A stretch of DNA of 29,003 nt from a virus (taxonomy: Duplodnaviria; Caudoviricetes): the IMG/VR virus record IMGVR_UViG_3300027804_000175, positions 1 through 29,003 of that record; one strand, 5' to 3'. The position numbers and the translations under genes are program-made. The notes beneath the pieces were generated by a model. That model was not told where the DNA came from. It did not search any database and was given only the letters and a program-made list of their open reading frames with translations. Within the stretch, counting starts at the first letter, position 1; every line of letters begins with the position of its first letter. Shown piece by piece: positions 2,111 to 17,385 of this stretch.

Positions 2111-3370
2111 TTATATCCCCGAAATAATATCTAGAGGCTCCCACTCATCTTCTTGGTCATCAACAAAGTATGAGGTTACAGCCAGTTGGTCAATGTAGGA
2201 GAGAGCATCAGGCAAGTCATCGTGAACACCTTGTGAGGGAAACATCAAAAGTTGATCTTTGAATTCATCCCAATCTTCCTCGGAGTTCAGCACAATACGC
2301 CCATGCTCAAACCTTCCTTGGAGACTCCAGATAATTCTGTCAGTCTTTTTCCTGTTGCCATGCGTTAAGTCAACTATGTGGGAATATACATTATTTTTCC
2401 TCATTAGGTCACTCAAATAAGGCAAAACAGCGTTTTTTAACGCTCCCCTCTCAATTCCAACACTCAAAGGGCGGTATTCCCGCATCTTCAGCAGAATCGT
2501 GGCGGCAGTCTCCCGAATGTCCCAACGCCCATAAACAATCTCTTTGACAAACCACTTGCCATCCTCAGTCACCTTGACCACAGCTACGGCAGTCTGGTCT
2601 AGCCTTTTCTTAGAGTTAGCCGCTTGTCTAGCCACTTCCTCAAAGCCAGCCAAGTCAACAGCTATGAAGTAAGAACCATACTCAGGTTCTTCCCCGTACT
2701 TAATCCATTCTTCTTTAAAGACATCTGACCCTGCATTGTCGAAAGATGCCATATACTCTTGCTTGAAGGCGAACGAACTTAGGGTCTTCTTTGCACTCTC
2801 TATTTCACTAGGGTCGATCAAAGGGTTGTCTTTTGTGGTGAAATGCCAACTTTTCCAGTCTGTATCTTCTTCTGACATTCCAAGTTTAAAGATGTCATAG
2901 AAGAAATTGCGACCCTTGGGAGTGCCGATGAACATAGCCCTACCCTTTTTGTCTGACAGAGAAGCACGAATAACCTGTTCCCATGCTTCTGGTTTGATGT
3001 CTGCAACCTCGTCAAGCACAGCATAGGTGAGCGACACTCCTCGCAAAGTATCTGGTCTATCTGCACCTCGGACATAAATCTTTGCTCCGTTTATCAAGGT
3101 AATGTCCATATTATTGATGTGGCTGGCTTGGATAACCTCCCGCCCCAACTCCATCAATACATCCCAAATAATCTGACGAGCCTGACCATTGGTAGGTGCA
3201 ACATAAAGCACAGCAGAGCCAGCAGTACATTGCAGTCCTTCAATCAATAGGGTGATGGCTGAGAGTCTAGACTTACCGCAACGCCGCCCTGCCGCAATGA
3301 CTTTGAACCTTGTTTTATCACTAAAAACAATTTGTTGCCACGGAAGCAAACTAAAATTTAAATCAGACAT
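2111..3370 (-). CDS. terL: Terminase large subunit
   Basis: Walker A AGRRCGKS, LRG motif, Walker B AVLDE, coupling motif GTPKG, nuclease AVDLA and HDDLPDALSY. Confidence 0.97.
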   Translation of the reverse strand: MSDLNFSLLPWQQIVFSDKTRFKVIAAGRRCGKSRLSAITLLIEGLQCTAGSAVLYVAPTNGQARQIIWDVLMELGREVIQASHINNMDITLINGAKIYVRGADRPDTLRGVSLTYAVLDEVADIKPEAWEQVIRASLSDKKGRAMFIGTPKGRNFFYDIFKLGMSEEDTDWKSWHFTTKDNPLIDPSEIESAKKTLSSFAFKQEYMASFDNAGSDVFKEEWIKYGEEPEYGSYFIAVDLAGFEEVARQAANSKKRLDQTAVAVVKVTEDGKWFVKEIVYGRWDIRETAATILLKMREYRPLSVGIERGALKNAVLPYLSDLMRKNNVYSHIVDLTHGNRKKTDRIIWSLQGRFEHGRIVLNSEEDWDEFKDQLLMFPSQGVHDDLPDALSYIDQLAVTSYFVDDQEDEWEPLDIISGI

Positions 3371-3893
3371 TGTGATCTTTCAAATACTGCATTGCCTTTA
3401 ACAAAACATCTTGATTGTCCTTGAAAGAACCTAATCCTGTGTTGCAGTTTTTGCAAAGTAACTTTCTTGTTTTCCCAGTTGTGTGGCAATGATCTACGGC
3501 TAACCTTGCTGGTTCTTTTGTTTTGGAATGTACAAAAGTTTCTGGGTTATTGCAAATAGCACATAAACCTTTTTGTTGTTTGTGCATCTGCTCGTAATCT
3601 TCGTATGAAAGACCAAACTTCCTCAAGTTTGTTGTTCGTTGATATTTCTTTACCTTATCAGGATTGTTCTTCTTCCACAATAACGATGCAACTTCTAGCT
3701 TTTCCTTGTTTTCTTCTTTGTATTTTTTAAGTTGGGCTTGAAGTTTGTCTTTTTGCTCTACATAGCGTTTTGCATGATATTTCTTACTGCAATCAATGCA
3801 ATGATACTGAAAGCCATCCTTTTCCTTTTTTGCTTTATGGAAGCATGAAGTTGGCTTGTACTCAACACAGCTTAAGCAAAGTTTTGTTTCCAT
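3363..3893 (-). CDS. Endonuclease VII-like HNH homing endonuclease
   Basis: CAIC...LAVDHCH...RKLLCKNCNTGLG EndoVII motif; N-terminal CxxC...CxxC; AT-rich; lies between terS and terL. Confidence 0.9.
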   Translation of the reverse strand: METKLCLSCVEYKPTSCFHKAKKEKDGFQYHCIDCSKKYHAKRYVEQKDKLQAQLKKYKEENKEKLEVASLLWKKNNPDKVKKYQRTTNLRKFGLSYEDYEQMHKQQKGLCAICNNPETFVHSKTKEPARLAVDHCHTTGKTRKLLCKNCNTGLGSFKDNQDVLLKAMQYLKDHNV

Positions 3894-3904
3894 GTAACCA
3901 TCCT

Positions 3905-3991
3905 TTATAGATGGTGAATTATATCACAAACATTCTTTAAAGCAAAGACTTCTTGTTGCCAAGGCAGGAGGCTAAAGTTAAGGTCAGACAT
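3905..3991 (-). pseudogene. Relic original terL 5' end (MSDLNFSLLPWQQEVFA plus an 11-codon junction tail)
   Basis: First 13 aa identical to the TerL N-terminus; start overlaps the terS stop (ATGTCTGA), exactly as terL overlaps the HNH stop. Confidence 0.9.
3918..3945 (-). promoter_or_regulatory. sigma70-type promoter of the HNH cassette
   Basis: TTGCTT-16nt-TATAAT with extended TGn. Confidence 0.65.
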
Positions 3992-4418
3992 CTTTGCTTT
4001 CTATATCTTCAGCTTCTACTGTGTTGTCACCAATGGTTACACCACCAATGCCTGAAATCGTAATGTTTACGGCACTTCTCTGATTCTTCTCTTTTTCAAA
4101 CAGAGTAACGGGGAGCATCCTATCCATACATAGCTTCAGAGCCGCCATCTGTGCGGGGTGGTCATCATCAAGGGCAATCTGAACAGTCTTCTGTACAACA
4201 TTGACTCCAGCACTGTTTATCAGGAGTTCTTTGAGTTCCTTGACCCTTTGATTCTCAGTCTTAGGCAATAAAGCTAATGGCTTGGCATCAGCATACTTTG
4301 CCATAGTCAATTTACCTGAACCCTTTGGGCGACCTCTTGGCGTAGCCAAGTTGTCTTGTTCCTTCGGAGGACGACCCTTTTTCTTCAGATTCTCAGGGAG
4401 TGCATCTACTACGTTCAT
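3984..4418 (-). CDS. terS: Probable terminase small subunit
   Basis: First gene of the packaging operon; two GRP (AT-hook-like) motifs; QMAALKLCMDR helix; INITISG-like C-terminal strand. Confidence 0.7.
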   Translation of the reverse strand: MNVVDALPENLKKKGRPPKEQDNLATPRGRPKGSGKLTMAKYADAKPLALLPKTENQRVKELKELLINSAGVNVVQKTVQIALDDDHPAQMAALKLCMDRMLPVTLFEKEKNQRSAVNITISGIGGVTIGDNTVEAEDIESKDV

Positions 4419-5146: not shown

Positions 5147-5225
5147 TGCACCAAGTTGGTGAATAGTGCTTACTAACATCCCTTTTTTGGTGCATAGTGT
5201 CTACTAACTTCACCATTTTGGTGCG
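5147..5225 (+). promoter_or_regulatory. Three phased NtrC-type enhancer sites
   Basis: TGCACCAAGTTGGTGAA (5147), ATCCCTTTTTTGGTGCA (5178), TTCACCATTTTGGTGCG (5209); 31-bp spacing; NtrC consensus TGCACCA-N3-TGGTGCA. Confidence 0.65.
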
Positions 5226-5548: not shown

Positions 5549-5613
5549 CAGTCCAGCGGTAAGCCCTCACGGGCTTATCAGTGCGCTGTTGCACTACTTT
5601 GAAAGGCTTCAAT

Positions 5614-5847
5614 ATGAACAACATTATCATCTTTAAACAGTCCTATGGTGAATTCACCACCGAGCAAGATGGGCGCTTGTCAGGTCATGTAATGACCATT
5701 ACAGGGAAGCGAAAAGATGGAAAATATACTGTCACCCATGCTTTCGGTAATGGCAAGCGCTTCAGGAATATCTACACTGTCGAGCAGTTACAGTGGGAAA
5801 TATTCAAGATGGAACGCAAAGAGCAAGAACTCAAGGCGGTGGCATGA
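5614..5847 (+). CDS. Early hypothetical protein (MNNIIIFK...)
   Basis: GAAAGG RBS before ATG 5614; 77 aa. Confidence 0.75.
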   Translation: MNNIIIFKQSYGEFTTEQDGRLSGHVMTITGKRKDGKYTVTHAFGNGKRFRNIYTVEQLQWEIFKMERKEQELKAVA

Positions 5848-5930: not shown

Positions 5931-5998
5931 GAGTCCAAACCCTTGGGGATTTTGTCCCCTTGGGCTTGCGCTTTTGCAAGGTTTTGAAAGGCTTAAAA

Positions 5999-6319
5999 AT
6001 GGAAAACTTTTTTGAACAATTCCAAGGCGCAGACCTCGACCGACTCGCCGAATGCTTAACTGCCATCCGCAAAGCAGGGCTTAAAACAGACAAACACACA
6101 CAGGCAGGGGTCAATCAATCCTCGGGTAATGTTTGGGTGTGGTCTGAAGATTGGGCGGGATGTATAGCTTGTTCCATCGGTTTCGATGTGTTTTGGGTTC
6201 ACTCATGCCGAGAATGTGGTGAAGAATTTGAATTTGAGACTTATCAGGAATTAGACGACTTTTTGCAGGATAACTGGAACGACTGCACATCATGCCGCAC
6301 TGAAGAGGTGACAGCATGA
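5999..6319 (+). CDS. Early hypothetical protein with Cys pairs (possible Zn ribbon)
   Basis: GAAAGG RBS before ATG 5999; CREC...CTSC; 106 aa. Confidence 0.75.
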   Translation: MENFFEQFQGADLDRLAECLTAIRKAGLKTDKHTQAGVNQSSGNVWVWSEDWAGCIACSIGFDVFWVHSCRECGEEFEFETYQELDDFLQDNWNDCTSCRTEEVTA

Positions 6320-6483: not shown

Positions 6484-6681
6484 CTAATCTGCCACTGTGC
6501 AAAGCCCAATATATTCCAGATTGTCATCAGACCTCAAACCTATGGCGTGAAAATGGACTGCCCAACGCAGACAAACCCTAAACCCTTCGCTTAGATTACC
6601 CTCACCTATTGCCCGAATAGCTTCGTATTCAACAGGGTCAAACTTGATAACAATGCCCTTTTTTTCGTCATTGTCAGACAT
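6484..6681 (-). CDS. Small hypothetical protein, possibly ribbon-helix-helix
   Basis: 65 aa; IVIKF strand then helices with GNLSEGFR; coupled to the upstream stop. Confidence 0.6.
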   Translation of the reverse strand: MSDNDEKKGIVIKFDPVEYEAIRAIGEGNLSEGFRVCLRWAVHFHAIGLRSDDNLEYIGLCTVAD

Positions 6682-7132
6682 TGGCTTGCCTCCAGTATTC
6701 AGCGATTAGCAAAGCCTCTGCCCTGTTTATGTCCTTTTTTAGCTTTAGTGGCGCTTTGGGGAATAGCTTCCTTGCAAGGTCTAATGCCTCGTTTTTGTCT
6801 GCTGTTAGCCCAAAATAGCCCTTCCACTTTTGAGGGCTTACCAAGTGAAAAGGGTAATTAGTCAATTCGCAAACTGCACTTATAACCCCGACTGCTCTAG
6901 CAAAATTCCATGTTGACGATATACCTTGTTTTGGCATAGCGTGTACCTGTTCCATGCAAATCTGTGCGCCTTCTTTGGGGTCAACAATGGATAGGATTCG
7001 ACTCTTAAACACCAAGGCGAGGATATGCTTGTCTTTGTGCTCAATCATGAATGACTCGACATAATTCCCATCATGGTCAATCGCCCCAAGTGCGCCATTA
7101 ACTGAACCAGCGTCTATACCTATGTAAATCAT
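6674..7132 (-). CDS. RuvC-like Holliday junction resolvase
   Basis: YIGIDAG, MEQV, VSPQKWK and RAEALLIA motifs. Confidence 0.85.
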   Translation of the reverse strand: MIYIGIDAGSVNGALGAIDHDGNYVESFMIEHKDKHILALVFKSRILSIVDPKEGAQICMEQVHAMPKQGISSTWNFARAVGVISAVCELTNYPFHLVSPQKWKGYFGLTADKNEALDLARKLFPKAPLKLKKDINRAEALLIAEYWRQANV

Positions 7133-7133
7133 A

Positions 7134-7961
7134 TTAATCTCCACAGAAACAAGCGATTGTTTCCTCGTTTGGGTCGAACATATCGGTTTGCTCAGACGAG
7201 AATTTAATCATTGAGGCATAAGATGGTCTGTCAGATCGGAAAACTGCACCACTTGGTTTAGATGCGATTTGTGATGCTAAATTTTCCATTTTTGCCCACC
7301 AAATACCTCGTTCAGGCTTTTCAGCAATCAAAGATAAAACTTGAGAGCCGCCCTTGAGAAAACACAAATCACAATTTCCGTGATAAGTAACTCCATTTAT
7401 GTTTGGCAATTCAAGATCAAAAGATTGGTTGCGCCAAAACTCACCAACAGTTTCTTTTGTAACGCCAGCAGTTACTAAGGGAATCCTTGATTTATCAACA
7501 ATCTTAGCGGCTCGTCTTTGCTCATCTGCCCGCATCCCAATCCAATCCATTGTTTCGGTATGGTCATGCCATCCAAGAGATTTTAAATATTTATGAATGG
7601 TGCGAATCTTCAATATTGATGTGCAAAATCGTGTTACAGGGTTTGGCAAATATTGGCGTTTGCGAATAATTGCCTCAAATGGCTCGCCGTTTCTACTAGC
7701 AGTATCAAAAGTAACCCTTTCAAAGGCAGGGTCTGCATCCCGATATTCAAGCCAATGAATTTCAACGCCCCAGTTATCAGAACAGGCTTGCACAAATCTT
7801 AAAGTCGCTTCGTCTTCTTTGCCTGTATTAGCAAAAATCACCTTTGCATCACTTGGCAAGCTCATATTGTGAGCTTCTAACACCCTGTAAAGCATATAAG
7901 CTGATGTTCTGCCACCTGAAAAACTGATGCAAGTTGGTTCTTTAATTTCAAACGGATTCAT
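7134..7961 (-). CDS. Phosphoadenosine phosphosulfate (PAPS) reductase family protein
   Basis: PP-loop SFSGGRTS, NTGKE, RFCT, GMRADE, NCDLCFLK, terminal CFCGD. Confidence 0.88.
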   Translation of the reverse strand: MNPFEIKEPTCISFSGGRTSAYMLYRVLEAHNMSLPSDAKVIFANTGKEDEATLRFVQACSDNWGVEIHWLEYRDADPAFERVTFDTASRNGEPFEAIIRKRQYLPNPVTRFCTSILKIRTIHKYLKSLGWHDHTETMDWIGMRADEQRRAAKIVDKSRIPLVTAGVTKETVGEFWRNQSFDLELPNINGVTYHGNCDLCFLKGGSQVLSLIAEKPERGIWWAKMENLASQIASKPSGAVFRSDRPSYASMIKFSSEQTDMFDPNEETIACFCGD

Positions 7962-11495: not shown

Positions 11496-11999
11496 ATGGA
11501 AGTTACTTTATCAAGATTGCATGAATTGTTTGATTACAAGGATGGCAACCTGATATGGAAAATTGCAAAAGCACAAATTATTAAAGTTGGAGACATTGCT
11601 GGAAATGTAGATAAATACGATGGGTATGTACGCATTGGAATTGATGGAAGTATTTATAAAGCACACCGCTTAATTTATTTTTATCACAATGGGCATTTAC
11701 CTTCGTTTATTGACCACATTGATGGCGATAGATCAAACAACAAAATTGAGAATTTGAGGTGTGCGACAAAATCGCAAAACTCAATGAATCAAAAAATCAG
11801 CACAAGAAATTCATCGGGTATCAAAGGCGTAATGTGGCACAAGAGAGATCAGAAATGGTTTGTTCAAATAAGAAAAAACAAGAAGTGCCATAGCTTTGGA
11901 TATTTCAATGATAAAGAGTTGGCAGAGTTGGTTGCGATAGAAGCAACTGATTTGTTACATAAAGATTTTTCAGCGTACAAAGGAGTTCTAAATGGATGA
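11496..11999 (+). CDS. HNH homing endonuclease with AP2-like C-terminal domain
   Basis: AHRLIY...IDHIDGDRSNNKIENLR, NSSGIKGV.W, GYF; AT-rich. Confidence 0.92.
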   Translation: MEVTLSRLHELFDYKDGNLIWKIAKAQIIKVGDIAGNVDKYDGYVRIGIDGSIYKAHRLIYFYHNGHLPSFIDHIDGDRSNNKIENLRCATKSQNSMNQKISTRNSSGIKGVMWHKRDQKWFVQIRKNKKCHSFGYFNDKELAELVAIEATDLLHKDFSAYKGVLNG

Positions 12000-12760: not shown

Positions 12761-12977
12761 AGAAGATGAAGCATTCAACGATATTGAACGACAAGCCAAG
12801 CAACGCCAAGAGTCTGTCAAAGCAAACTTCCTAAGACCCAAGTCGGCACAGGAGTTCTATGACGAACTACGCAATGGCGTTATTGATGAAGTTGTTAGAG
12901 AGGTTAGGAGATTAACTTCCTTTGGCAAAGATACCATTGACAGTTTGGCTGTTTACATTGAGGGAATGAAGAAGTGA
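12753..12977 (+). CDS. Hypothetical protein (MTEEDEAF...)
   Basis: GAGG RBS; coupled overlap. Confidence 0.7.
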   Translation: MTEEDEAFNDIERQAKQRQESVKANFLRPKSAQEFYDELRNGVIDEVVREVRRLTSFGKDTIDSLAVYIEGMKK

Positions 12978-13195
12978 CACAAGATGAAATCATTGAGATG
13001 GCTAGACAAGCTAGTGTTTGGACAGAAGCGGACTGGGTGTTTGCTGATATTTTGAATCCAAAGATTGAATCCTTTGCCAAATTGGTGGCCGCCAAAGAAC
13101 GTGAATCCATCATACAAATCATTAAAGCCATGCCATTCAGTAATTGGTTTCAATTTGATGTGATTGAAGCCATCAGAGCAAGGGGACAAGCATGA
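12974..13195 (+). CDS. Hypothetical protein, MTQDE...IRARGQA family, copy 1
   Basis: 4-nt overlaps; termini shared with the next gene. Confidence 0.75.
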   Translation: MTQDEIIEMARQASVWTEADWVFADILNPKIESFAKLVAAKERESIIQIIKAMPFSNWFQFDVIEAIRARGQA

Positions 13196-13455
13196 CACAA
13201 GATGAAATTATGGGTATGGCCAAAAAGGTTGGCTTTCCAATACGGCATCCTGATTGGCAAAAAGCCGCAGAAGAATTTGCCGCATTGGTGGAAGAGAAAG
13301 CAACAGAGAAATCCAACGCAAGAGCCAATAGTTCTTGGACATTGATGTGCGAAAAGATGGTTGTGCTTGAACGTGAAGCCTGTGCAAAGGTGGCTGATGG
13401 ATTTATTGGTGGCGATGTGATTGCTGAACGCATCAGAGCAAGGGGACAGGCATGA
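13192..13455 (+). CDS. Hypothetical protein, MTQDE...IRARGQA family, copy 2
   Basis: FAALV and EREACAKV motifs; shared termini. Confidence 0.75.
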   Translation: MTQDEIMGMAKKVGFPIRHPDWQKAAEEFAALVEEKATEKSNARANSSWTLMCEKMVVLEREACAKVADGFIGGDVIAERIRARGQA

Positions 13456-16823: not shown

Positions 16824-16859
16824 TTAACGTGATTTGTTCAAAGTTTGGTAAACATTGTT
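16824..16859 (-). pseudogene. Probable relic C-terminus of the i-spanin (NNVYQTLNKSR*)
   Basis: Sits at the far edge of the HNH cassette; length and V/L register match the current tail ESVRKSLIQVER. Confidence 0.55.
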
Positions 16860-16935: not shown

Positions 16936-17385
16936 ATGAACAAAGACGATTTTAAACACATTAATTACAACCCTGATACAGGTTTGTTTTTCTCCATCAC
17001 AAATATTGAAACGCCAATTGGCACAATCAATAAAAGTGGATATGTTATTTTTAGGGTAAATGGGAAATTACTATATGCCCATAGAGTTGCGTTTTTTCTT
17101 ATGCATGGTTTTTTACCAAAAATGGTAGACCATATCAATAGGAATCGATCTGATAATAGATTAGCAAATTTGCGTGAAGCTGATGCAAAATTGAACTCAG
17201 AAAACTCCAAAGGTTATGGAGTTACCAAGCCAAAACATACGAAAAAATGGGCTTCTTCTATAACGAATAATAGGAAGCGTATTCACTTAGGGTATTTTGA
17301 TACTGCCGAAGAAGCAAACAAAGCCTACCTCTTAGCAAAACAAAAATACCATCCTAACGCTCAACCTGAATCAGCGATTTCCTAA
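16936..17385 (+). CDS. HNH-AP2 homing endonuclease, antisense to the lysis operon
   Basis: AHRVAF...VDHINRNRSDNRLANLR; W.S.I..NRKRIHLGYFDTAEEA..AY; AAGGA RBS. Confidence 0.92.
   Translation: MNKDDFKHINYNPDTGLFFSITNIETPIGTINKSGYVIFRVNGKLLYAHRVAFFLMHGFLPKMVDHINRNRSDNRLANLREADAKLNSENSKGYGVTKPKHTKKWASSITNNRKRIHLGYFDTAEEANKAYLLAKQKYHPNAQPESAIS

Follow-up and report, generated by a model that had tools for sequence, protein, structure and literature searches.

The large terminase gene (terL) of the virus contig studied here is split near its start by a 621-bp cassette that consists of a leader, a nuclease gene and a replacement terL start (3320..3940, minus strand, delimited by sequence comparison). 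The analyzed stretch, referred to below as the window, comprises 29,003 nt (positions 1 to 29,003 of IMG/VR record IMGVR_UViG_3300027804_000175, 84% complete). Comparison with related loci makes it probable that this is a target-splitting terL cassette with a captured rescue start which spreads by homing. Such an element would offer homing nucleases a further way of residing within an essential phage gene, one that needs no splicing.

On the minus strand, the gene order is a 144-aa gene (3984..4418), a 28-codon ORF (3905..3991), a 176-aa nuclease gene (3363..3893), terL (2111..3370) and the portal gene. The upstream gene is probably the small terminase. The label terS, given to it in the initial annotation, fits its position; the protein has no Pfam or PHROG match, and its look-alikes are all hypothetical viral proteins. 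Its stop overlaps the start of the 28-codon ORF by 8 nt. This ORF comprises 17 terL-like codons (3941..3991, hereafter the stub) followed by 11 more sense codons and a TAA read from cassette DNA (3905..3940), exactly as first described; the length of the read-through tail varies among carriers. Standard annotation will miss or mis-call such a stub. The replacement for these 17 codons (3320..3370) forms the beginning of the functional terL gene, and the stub and terL starts each overlap the preceding stop, that of the nuclease gene in the latter case, by an identical 8 nt. Among GenBank phages we found no close cultured relative, the best terL matches being below 60%, and no nuclease that is close over its full length.

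Of the 17 residues encoded by the stub and by the replacement, 15 agree, as do 36 of the 51 nt. At 8 of the 13 degenerate codons whose residue is unchanged the spelling differs, so that a near-identical peptide, a different codon usage and an identical overlap are found together, as had been noticed from the sequence. The GC content is 45% in both the stub and the rest of terL, 36% in the nuclease gene and 29% in the replacement. A six-frame self-comparison of the window returned this pair as its best non-self match (E 4.7e-12), and the likeness is thus not due to chance. Nor is the layout an assembly artifact, since 16 distinct stub/replacement pairs were recovered in 21 records.

The terL frame downstream of the nuclease gene is intact (419 aa; Terminase_6N, phrog_2) and matches its relatives over residues 1-419. 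Ten aligned terL proteins, with identities down to 57%, all keep LLPWQ and V15, and terminase profiles match from residues 4-5 onward, which suggests that the first terL codons, around LLPWQ, are likely indispensable. We take LLPWQ to be the adenine-binding Q motif; a literature search for LLPWQ as a terminase Q motif found no support. The predicted structure of terL is uninformative, with a mean pLDDT of 52 and residues 1-16 below 50.

The uninvaded state is common among relatives. A terL scan covering 25 of the 64 parts of the collection gave 596 confirmed loci, of which the best 80 were kept. One locus (L042), whose terL gene is truncated at residue 9, was set aside, and another (L008) is a carrier, which left 78 empty alleles, 75 of them distinct. 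Among these best 80 of 596 loci, 78 of the 79 scorable close relatives have a single terL start and no copy of the nuclease upstream, and L008 is the sole locus with this nuclease in that position. In two empty alleles (L003 and L010) the stub sequence recurs at 51 of 51 nt and is followed directly by DKTR, the fusion that the initial annotation had predicted for nuclease-free relatives. The window's replacement reaches at best 44 of 51 nt in any of the 75 distinct empty alleles. The stub is therefore the original terL start and positions 3940-3320 are an insert after codon 17, so that the nuclease gene indeed lies inside terL. In ten relatives (L012, L013, L025, L030, L031, L035, L037, L039, L040 and L082), 150-500 extra bases separate the upstream gene from terL; this junction thus takes up other inserts too.

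Scans with the nuclease and the leader provided 26 records for junction analysis. Three of these are truncated and two (L092 and L093) lack a long stub; the remaining 21 carrier records, some of which repeat one contig and one of which (L177) is the window itself, contain the 16 distinct pairs mentioned above. Carrier nucleases are 72-100% identical to that of the window. All 21 records have a stub of 16 or 17 codons and the 8-nt stop-start overlap, with a start-to-start spacing of 619, 621 or 623. L089 and L174 are 100% identical in leader, nuclease and replacement, against 85% in the stub, 72% upstream and 78%, then 71%, in terL after codon 17. The window and L082 agree at 98%, 100% and 100% in the three cassette parts, with 94% in the stub, 59% upstream and 93-97% in terL. 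For L086 and L181 the corresponding values are 100%, 99% and 98%, with 81% in the stub and 89-93% in the flanks, while the window and L084/L085 show 92-96% in the cassette parts and 74-92% in the flanks. These patterns indicate that the cassette, replacement included, moves as a unit and that the stub follows the host. Consistent with this, on a terL tree of 101 rows built from codon 18 on, nine long-stub carriers need seven changes. Recombination also reaches into the cassette: L175 has a leader (94%) and a replacement (92%) of the window type around a nuclease that is 76% identical to that of the window and 87% (nt) to that of L088, which points to a nuclease swap. Phages of this group recombine often.

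The tract common to L089 and L174 runs from stub codon 9 to terL codon 21, and we infer that its limits bracket the DNA break. In the proposed cycle, the nuclease would cut an empty allele somewhere between codons 9 and 22, which places the putative cut site within about 13 codons. The stub would then provide left-hand homology and terL from codon 18 on right-hand homology; repair would copy the cassette in, and the recipient's own terL start would become the new stub. A carrier would likely be protected twice, first because its site is interrupted by the insertion and second because codons 14-15 are different in the rebuilt junction. Repair that copied only replacement codons 14-17 would yield working, nuclease-free and possibly resistant alleles.

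Codon 14 lends indirect support to a putative cleavage resistance of the replacement. Among empty alleles 63 of 75, and among stubs 15 of 16, have G as its first base; none of the 16 replacements does, and there the codon encodes I (nine), Q (four) or T (three). A larger excess over background is seen at just one other position, the third base of codon 10. The exceptions are the stub of L088, which lacks this G, and the terL gene of L093, which has it.

According to the initial annotation, nuclease-free relatives should not use the downstream codon set. For codons 1-10 of the replacement they never do; codons 14-17, the IVFS patch (3320..3331 in the window), also occur alone, in 7 of the 75 empty alleles (six exact, one with a single change), on host-type codons 1-10. 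In 7/7 cases such an allele differs from its nearest non-IVFS neighbor at 5-7 of the 12 nt; for 68 control alleles the median is 0 (p 6.5e-6). A census based on a pattern in which the patch is obligatory gave 29 loci, namely seven carriers and 22 loci without this nuclease. Among the latter, 19 distinct alleles agree with every replacement at 24 or fewer of the 30 nt in codons 1-10. The distribution of the patch over 20 rows of the terL tree requires 14 changes, of which well-supported branches force 10; the neighboring variants Y16 and D14 require three changes for 11 rows and two for five. Individual alleles resemble particular replacements: L208 matches that of L085 from codon 9 on, and the difference between L056 and L059 at codons 12-15 is the same as that between the L180 replacement and its stub. 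The patch fits a repair event that copied only the break-adjacent part of a replacement, or excision between the two copies, and the patch alleles are possibly resistance alleles. The window encodes Sak and YqaJ recombination proteins; proteins of these kinds tolerate short homology. The patch could also be an older polymorphism picked up by the cassette, given that recombination is frequent and that other variants scatter on the tree too (changes/rows: E13 7/15, K17 7/13, T14 3/4).

This scatter also bears on an unlikely alternative in which the element homes but is protected only from elsewhere, either by a cut site outside codons 9-22 or by splitting alone, with the spelling incidental and the patch an ordinary polymorphism. 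The stub and the replacement diverge within the natural range, since 36% of empty-allele pairs differ by at least 15 of 51 nt (mean 12.0; 18% among pairs of 32 close alleles). Moreover, the state of codon 14 is perhaps one inherited donor trait, with T in L212, L213, L087 and L176, and these are therefore not four independent tests. Free-standing T4 nucleases, as described in an excerpt of PMC2988022, cut hundreds to thousands of bases from their own gene. However, in the recent carriers identity falls before codon 9 and right after codon 21, leaving no long co-converted tract, and a cleavable rebuilt junction would mean that the carrier cuts itself. The patch, furthermore, is a dense block of 5-7 nt differences within otherwise near-identical alleles.

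It is less likely still that a passenger nuclease and a foreign terL start entered by a one-off insertion-duplication, through a single crossover or end-joining, and were later passed on by inheritance and ordinary recombination, with no homing. Recombination is evident, as in the L175 nuclease swap, and the cassette probably did originate in such a step. Passive inheritance nevertheless accounts poorly for the state of the nuclease gene, which has a dN/dS of 0.05-0.17 in 10 of 10 pairs (dS up to about 1.7, some values saturated) and so is under purifying selection over such distances, though 78 of 79 scorable relatives lack the gene here. It accounts equally poorly for 100% identical, sharp-edged cassettes in divergent hosts.

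The nuclease matches PF02945 (Endonuclease_7; E 5.9e-21) over residues 91-172 of 176. It has Cys pairs in the N-terminal part and the elements of the DHHRN motif (CX2-4C, D-H-x-H, R and CX2C-N) in the C-terminal part; the residues concerned, C111/C114, D134, H135, H137, R143, C147/C150 and N151, are invariant in all 13 aligned rows. The gene is optional: cognate empty alleles exist, and there are signs that it has spread laterally. In the window it is not free-standing in the sense of an intergenic gene beside an uninterrupted target, a state found in L092, L093, L212 and L213. We consider it highly improbable that this nuclease is a host-serving packaging cofactor of the HK97 gp74 type or a Holliday-junction resolvase, with the duplication a side effect of its acquisition. 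Its place between the terminase genes would suit such a role; T4 EndoVII is a resolvase, and excerpts of PMC10448857 and PMC12724721 describe nucleases beside terL that can serve packaging. But a gp74-type gene should be conserved in all members of its phage group and this one is absent upstream of terL in nearly all scorable relatives, the C-terminal position of the EndoVII motif is the endonuclease-clade and not the resolvase-clade arrangement (criterion from an excerpt of PMC6083498), and the phage has a separate resolvase-family gene at 6674-7144. Finally, the idea that the insert is a cryptic intron and that splicing or ribosomal bypass connects the stub, as a functional exon, to codon 18 deserves almost no credence in spite of the insert length of 621 nt in the window, a multiple of three, and the terL introns of phage ICP1 (PMC10448857, in excerpt), as only 47 nt are non-coding, the start-to-start spacing varies among carriers, terL has a complete frame without splicing, and no Rfam intron matches up to E 10. 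Thus no ribozyme core surrounds the ORF as in a mobile group I or II intron; with the full-length terL and no intein family match, split inteins and genes in pieces, where both halves are needed, do not apply either, and the element is intron-less and intein-less as initially proposed.

The 47 nt before the nuclease gene contain a predicted extended -10 promoter element, TG-n-TATAAT (3918..3926, minus strand), and a predicted 7-bp RNA hairpin over the purine tract of the nuclease ribosome-binding site (3897..3915, minus strand). The hairpin is modest (-8.1 kcal/mol, equaled by 8 of 200 shuffles). The terL codons 16-17 occupy the -35 position of the promoter (3946-3941), which lies 17 nt upstream. 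A sigma-70 scan did not report the site, because the -35 position matches only 3/6. In the short-stub relatives L092, L212 and L213 the place of these terL codons is taken by a near-consensus -35, and TG precedes the -10 in 13 of 13 long-stub leaders tested versus one of four short-stub leaders. Only two sites in the window match TGnTAnAAT, each preceding a nuclease gene. Each of the 16 family leaders tested covers the purine tract with a predicted stem, built from differing sequences, that 0-19 of 200 mononucleotide shuffles equal; the leader stems of two stub-less and two helicase-linked relatives do not stand out (52-120 of 200). Two further roles were considered and rejected. As a target-mimicking operator, as in I-TevI, the leader gave best 16-nt matches (10-11) that 81-277 of 300 shuffles reach. 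The stub is not a general coupling leader peptide, as its end falls within the hairpin loop only for the clade of the window and comes earlier in L086-L091.

The origin of the replacement may be sought among relatives of the nuclease that lack the long stub. In L092, L093, L212 and L213 (56-64% identity) the nuclease gene follows the upstream stop directly and no more than three codons are left over; three more distant relatives (L096, L097 and L113, ~38% identity) have no stub. Where it could be read, the nuclease gene of all these relatives overlaps the terL start by 8 nt. The terL starts behind the nucleases of L212 and L213 contain the unusual codons of the replacements (AAT, TTG and T14). 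Most likely, the replacement is the terL start of the donor phage itself, captured together with the nuclease. Such a donor would have carried the nuclease gene between its two terminase genes, and a stub would arise when the cut end of a recipient was joined to the cassette promoter via short homology. This stub-creating junction may have formed in one event and not two. In the nuclease tree the short-stub clade has a support of 74/79 and long branches, and the tree does not prove that short stubs came first. The initial term, a recoded replacement, stands insofar as the replacement N-terminus is real and travels with the nuclease; the implied special rewriting does not, since the 15/51 difference lies within the natural spread of alleles given above. 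A captured foreign allele is therefore the better wording, as intergenic nuclease relatives precede similar terL starts.

The logic of the cassette is already known from fungal mitochondria, for gene tails. In the mORF gene hybrids of Allomyces macrogynus (atp6) and Glomus sp. (atp6, atp9, cox2 and nad3), as presented in an excerpt of PMC3630166, an intron-less endonuclease gene in an essential gene likewise brings a foreign replacement end, the orphaned native end matches uninvaded relatives, and the differences are largely synonymous. There, however, the 3' end, encoding the C-terminus, is replaced by LAGLIDADG or GIY-YIG elements in a mitochondrion, whereas here the N-terminal end is replaced in a phage and the nuclease has an EndoVII motif. 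Start-stop coupling and a predicted promoter of its own are features of the phage cassette. For mitochondrial insertions with a host-gene duplicate in the fungus Tremella fuciformis (excerpt of PMC7315562), element loss is proposed to leave a foreign fragment, much like the IVFS patch. Although called an N-terminal duplication, the copy, which is found at the insert's 5' end, duplicates the following exon, so the downstream part is replaced; unlike the reading given here, the excerpt carries no resistance argument.

Among phage systems, intronless homing by SegF, SegG and MobE of T4 (excerpts of PMC2988022 and PMC12724721) also involves an optional nuclease gene beside an essential gene, a resistant donor allele of the target, and a nuclease with its own promoter and a hairpin over the ribosome-binding site, a layout like that described above. 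The T4 genes are intergenic and cut at a distance (PMC2988022, same excerpt), while here the gene lies inside its likely target and has left a duplicate start; the relatives L092, L093, L212, L213, L096, L097 and L113 look like the intergenic, T4-type state. F-CphI of the DHHRN family, compared by the motif described in the excerpt of PMC6083498, is a free-standing phage gene with the same C-terminal EndoVII motif (CxxC, D-H-x-H, R and CxxC-N), but owes its protection to a group I intron in psbA (collaborative homing), and there is no intron here. Fractured genes, such as Aeh1 nrdA-mobE and split inteins (excerpt of PMC2677866), have, inside an essential gene, an endonuclease gene whose 3' end overlaps and supplies the downstream start codon, together with a leader hairpin. 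Both of their halves are needed and reassemble, whereas here the upstream piece is replaced by a duplicate. Synthetic home-and-rescue drives (HomeR, recoded kh and RpL35A; excerpt of PMC11432399) also place a nuclease cassette with a differently coded rescue in an essential gene; they are Cas9-based and built in insects, and the likeness is one of working principle, not of kinship. A search of the open-access literature found no description of a phage homing nuclease with a replacement gene start. Integrase elements that replace the 5' end of a gene are known, as with SXT in prfC and the dusA-associated integrases.

More tentatively, the cassette might be a natural home-and-rescue phage gene drive, in which an intergenic homing nuclease became an intron-less target-splitter via a captured rescue, and this rescue keeps seeding drive-resistant 12-nt patch alleles that outnumber the carriers; we regard this wider reading as possible, though somewhat doubtful. 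Patch alleles and carriers stand at 7 to 1 in the unbiased terL set (best 80 of 596 loci) and at 22 to 7 in the patch census. The empty alleles, the 16 carrier junctions, the intergenic relatives and the candidate resistant alleles bear on the origin of such elements and on rescue-bred resistance, a standing question for gene drives. In addition, the cassette swaps the first terL codons between lineages.

Other nuclease genes were found in the window and in related loci. An HNH nuclease of phrog_99 (16936-17385, plus strand) lies on the strand opposite its neighbors, preceded at 16859 by a promoter-like site, the second of the two TGnTAnAAT sites in the window. An HNH-AP2 nuclease (11496-11999, plus strand) is located between the YqaJ gene and an 84-aa gene and overlaps the start of the latter by 8 nt; the self-comparison of the window revealed no stub for it. 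In L034 (2612-3085) a different EndoVII gene (37% identity) lies between terL and portal without a duplication, and L156 is similar. When 82 nuclease-bearing loci were screened for duplicated peptides (two were passed over because their flanks were too short), the hits were the terL carriers, L139 and L115, the last being a false match of low complexity. L139 (=L228, about 2560-3530) and L133 (=L229) show a mirror layout, with a complete helicase-like gene, a promoter inside a hairpin, an EndoVII-motif nuclease and an orphan copy of the helicase tail. This form is clear in two of the 10 closest loci; L232, L234 and L235 keep only the last few tail residues. Elsewhere in the window, two adjacent small ORFs (12975-13455, plus strand) are nearly the same at their starts (28 nt, 86%) and also at their ends (31 nt, 90%). 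A 44-nt repeat (77%) precedes two small genes (5582-5625 and 5967-6010, plus strand), and a 31-nt tandem pair occupies the gap upstream of the terminase genes (5156-5217); both may be regulatory sites.
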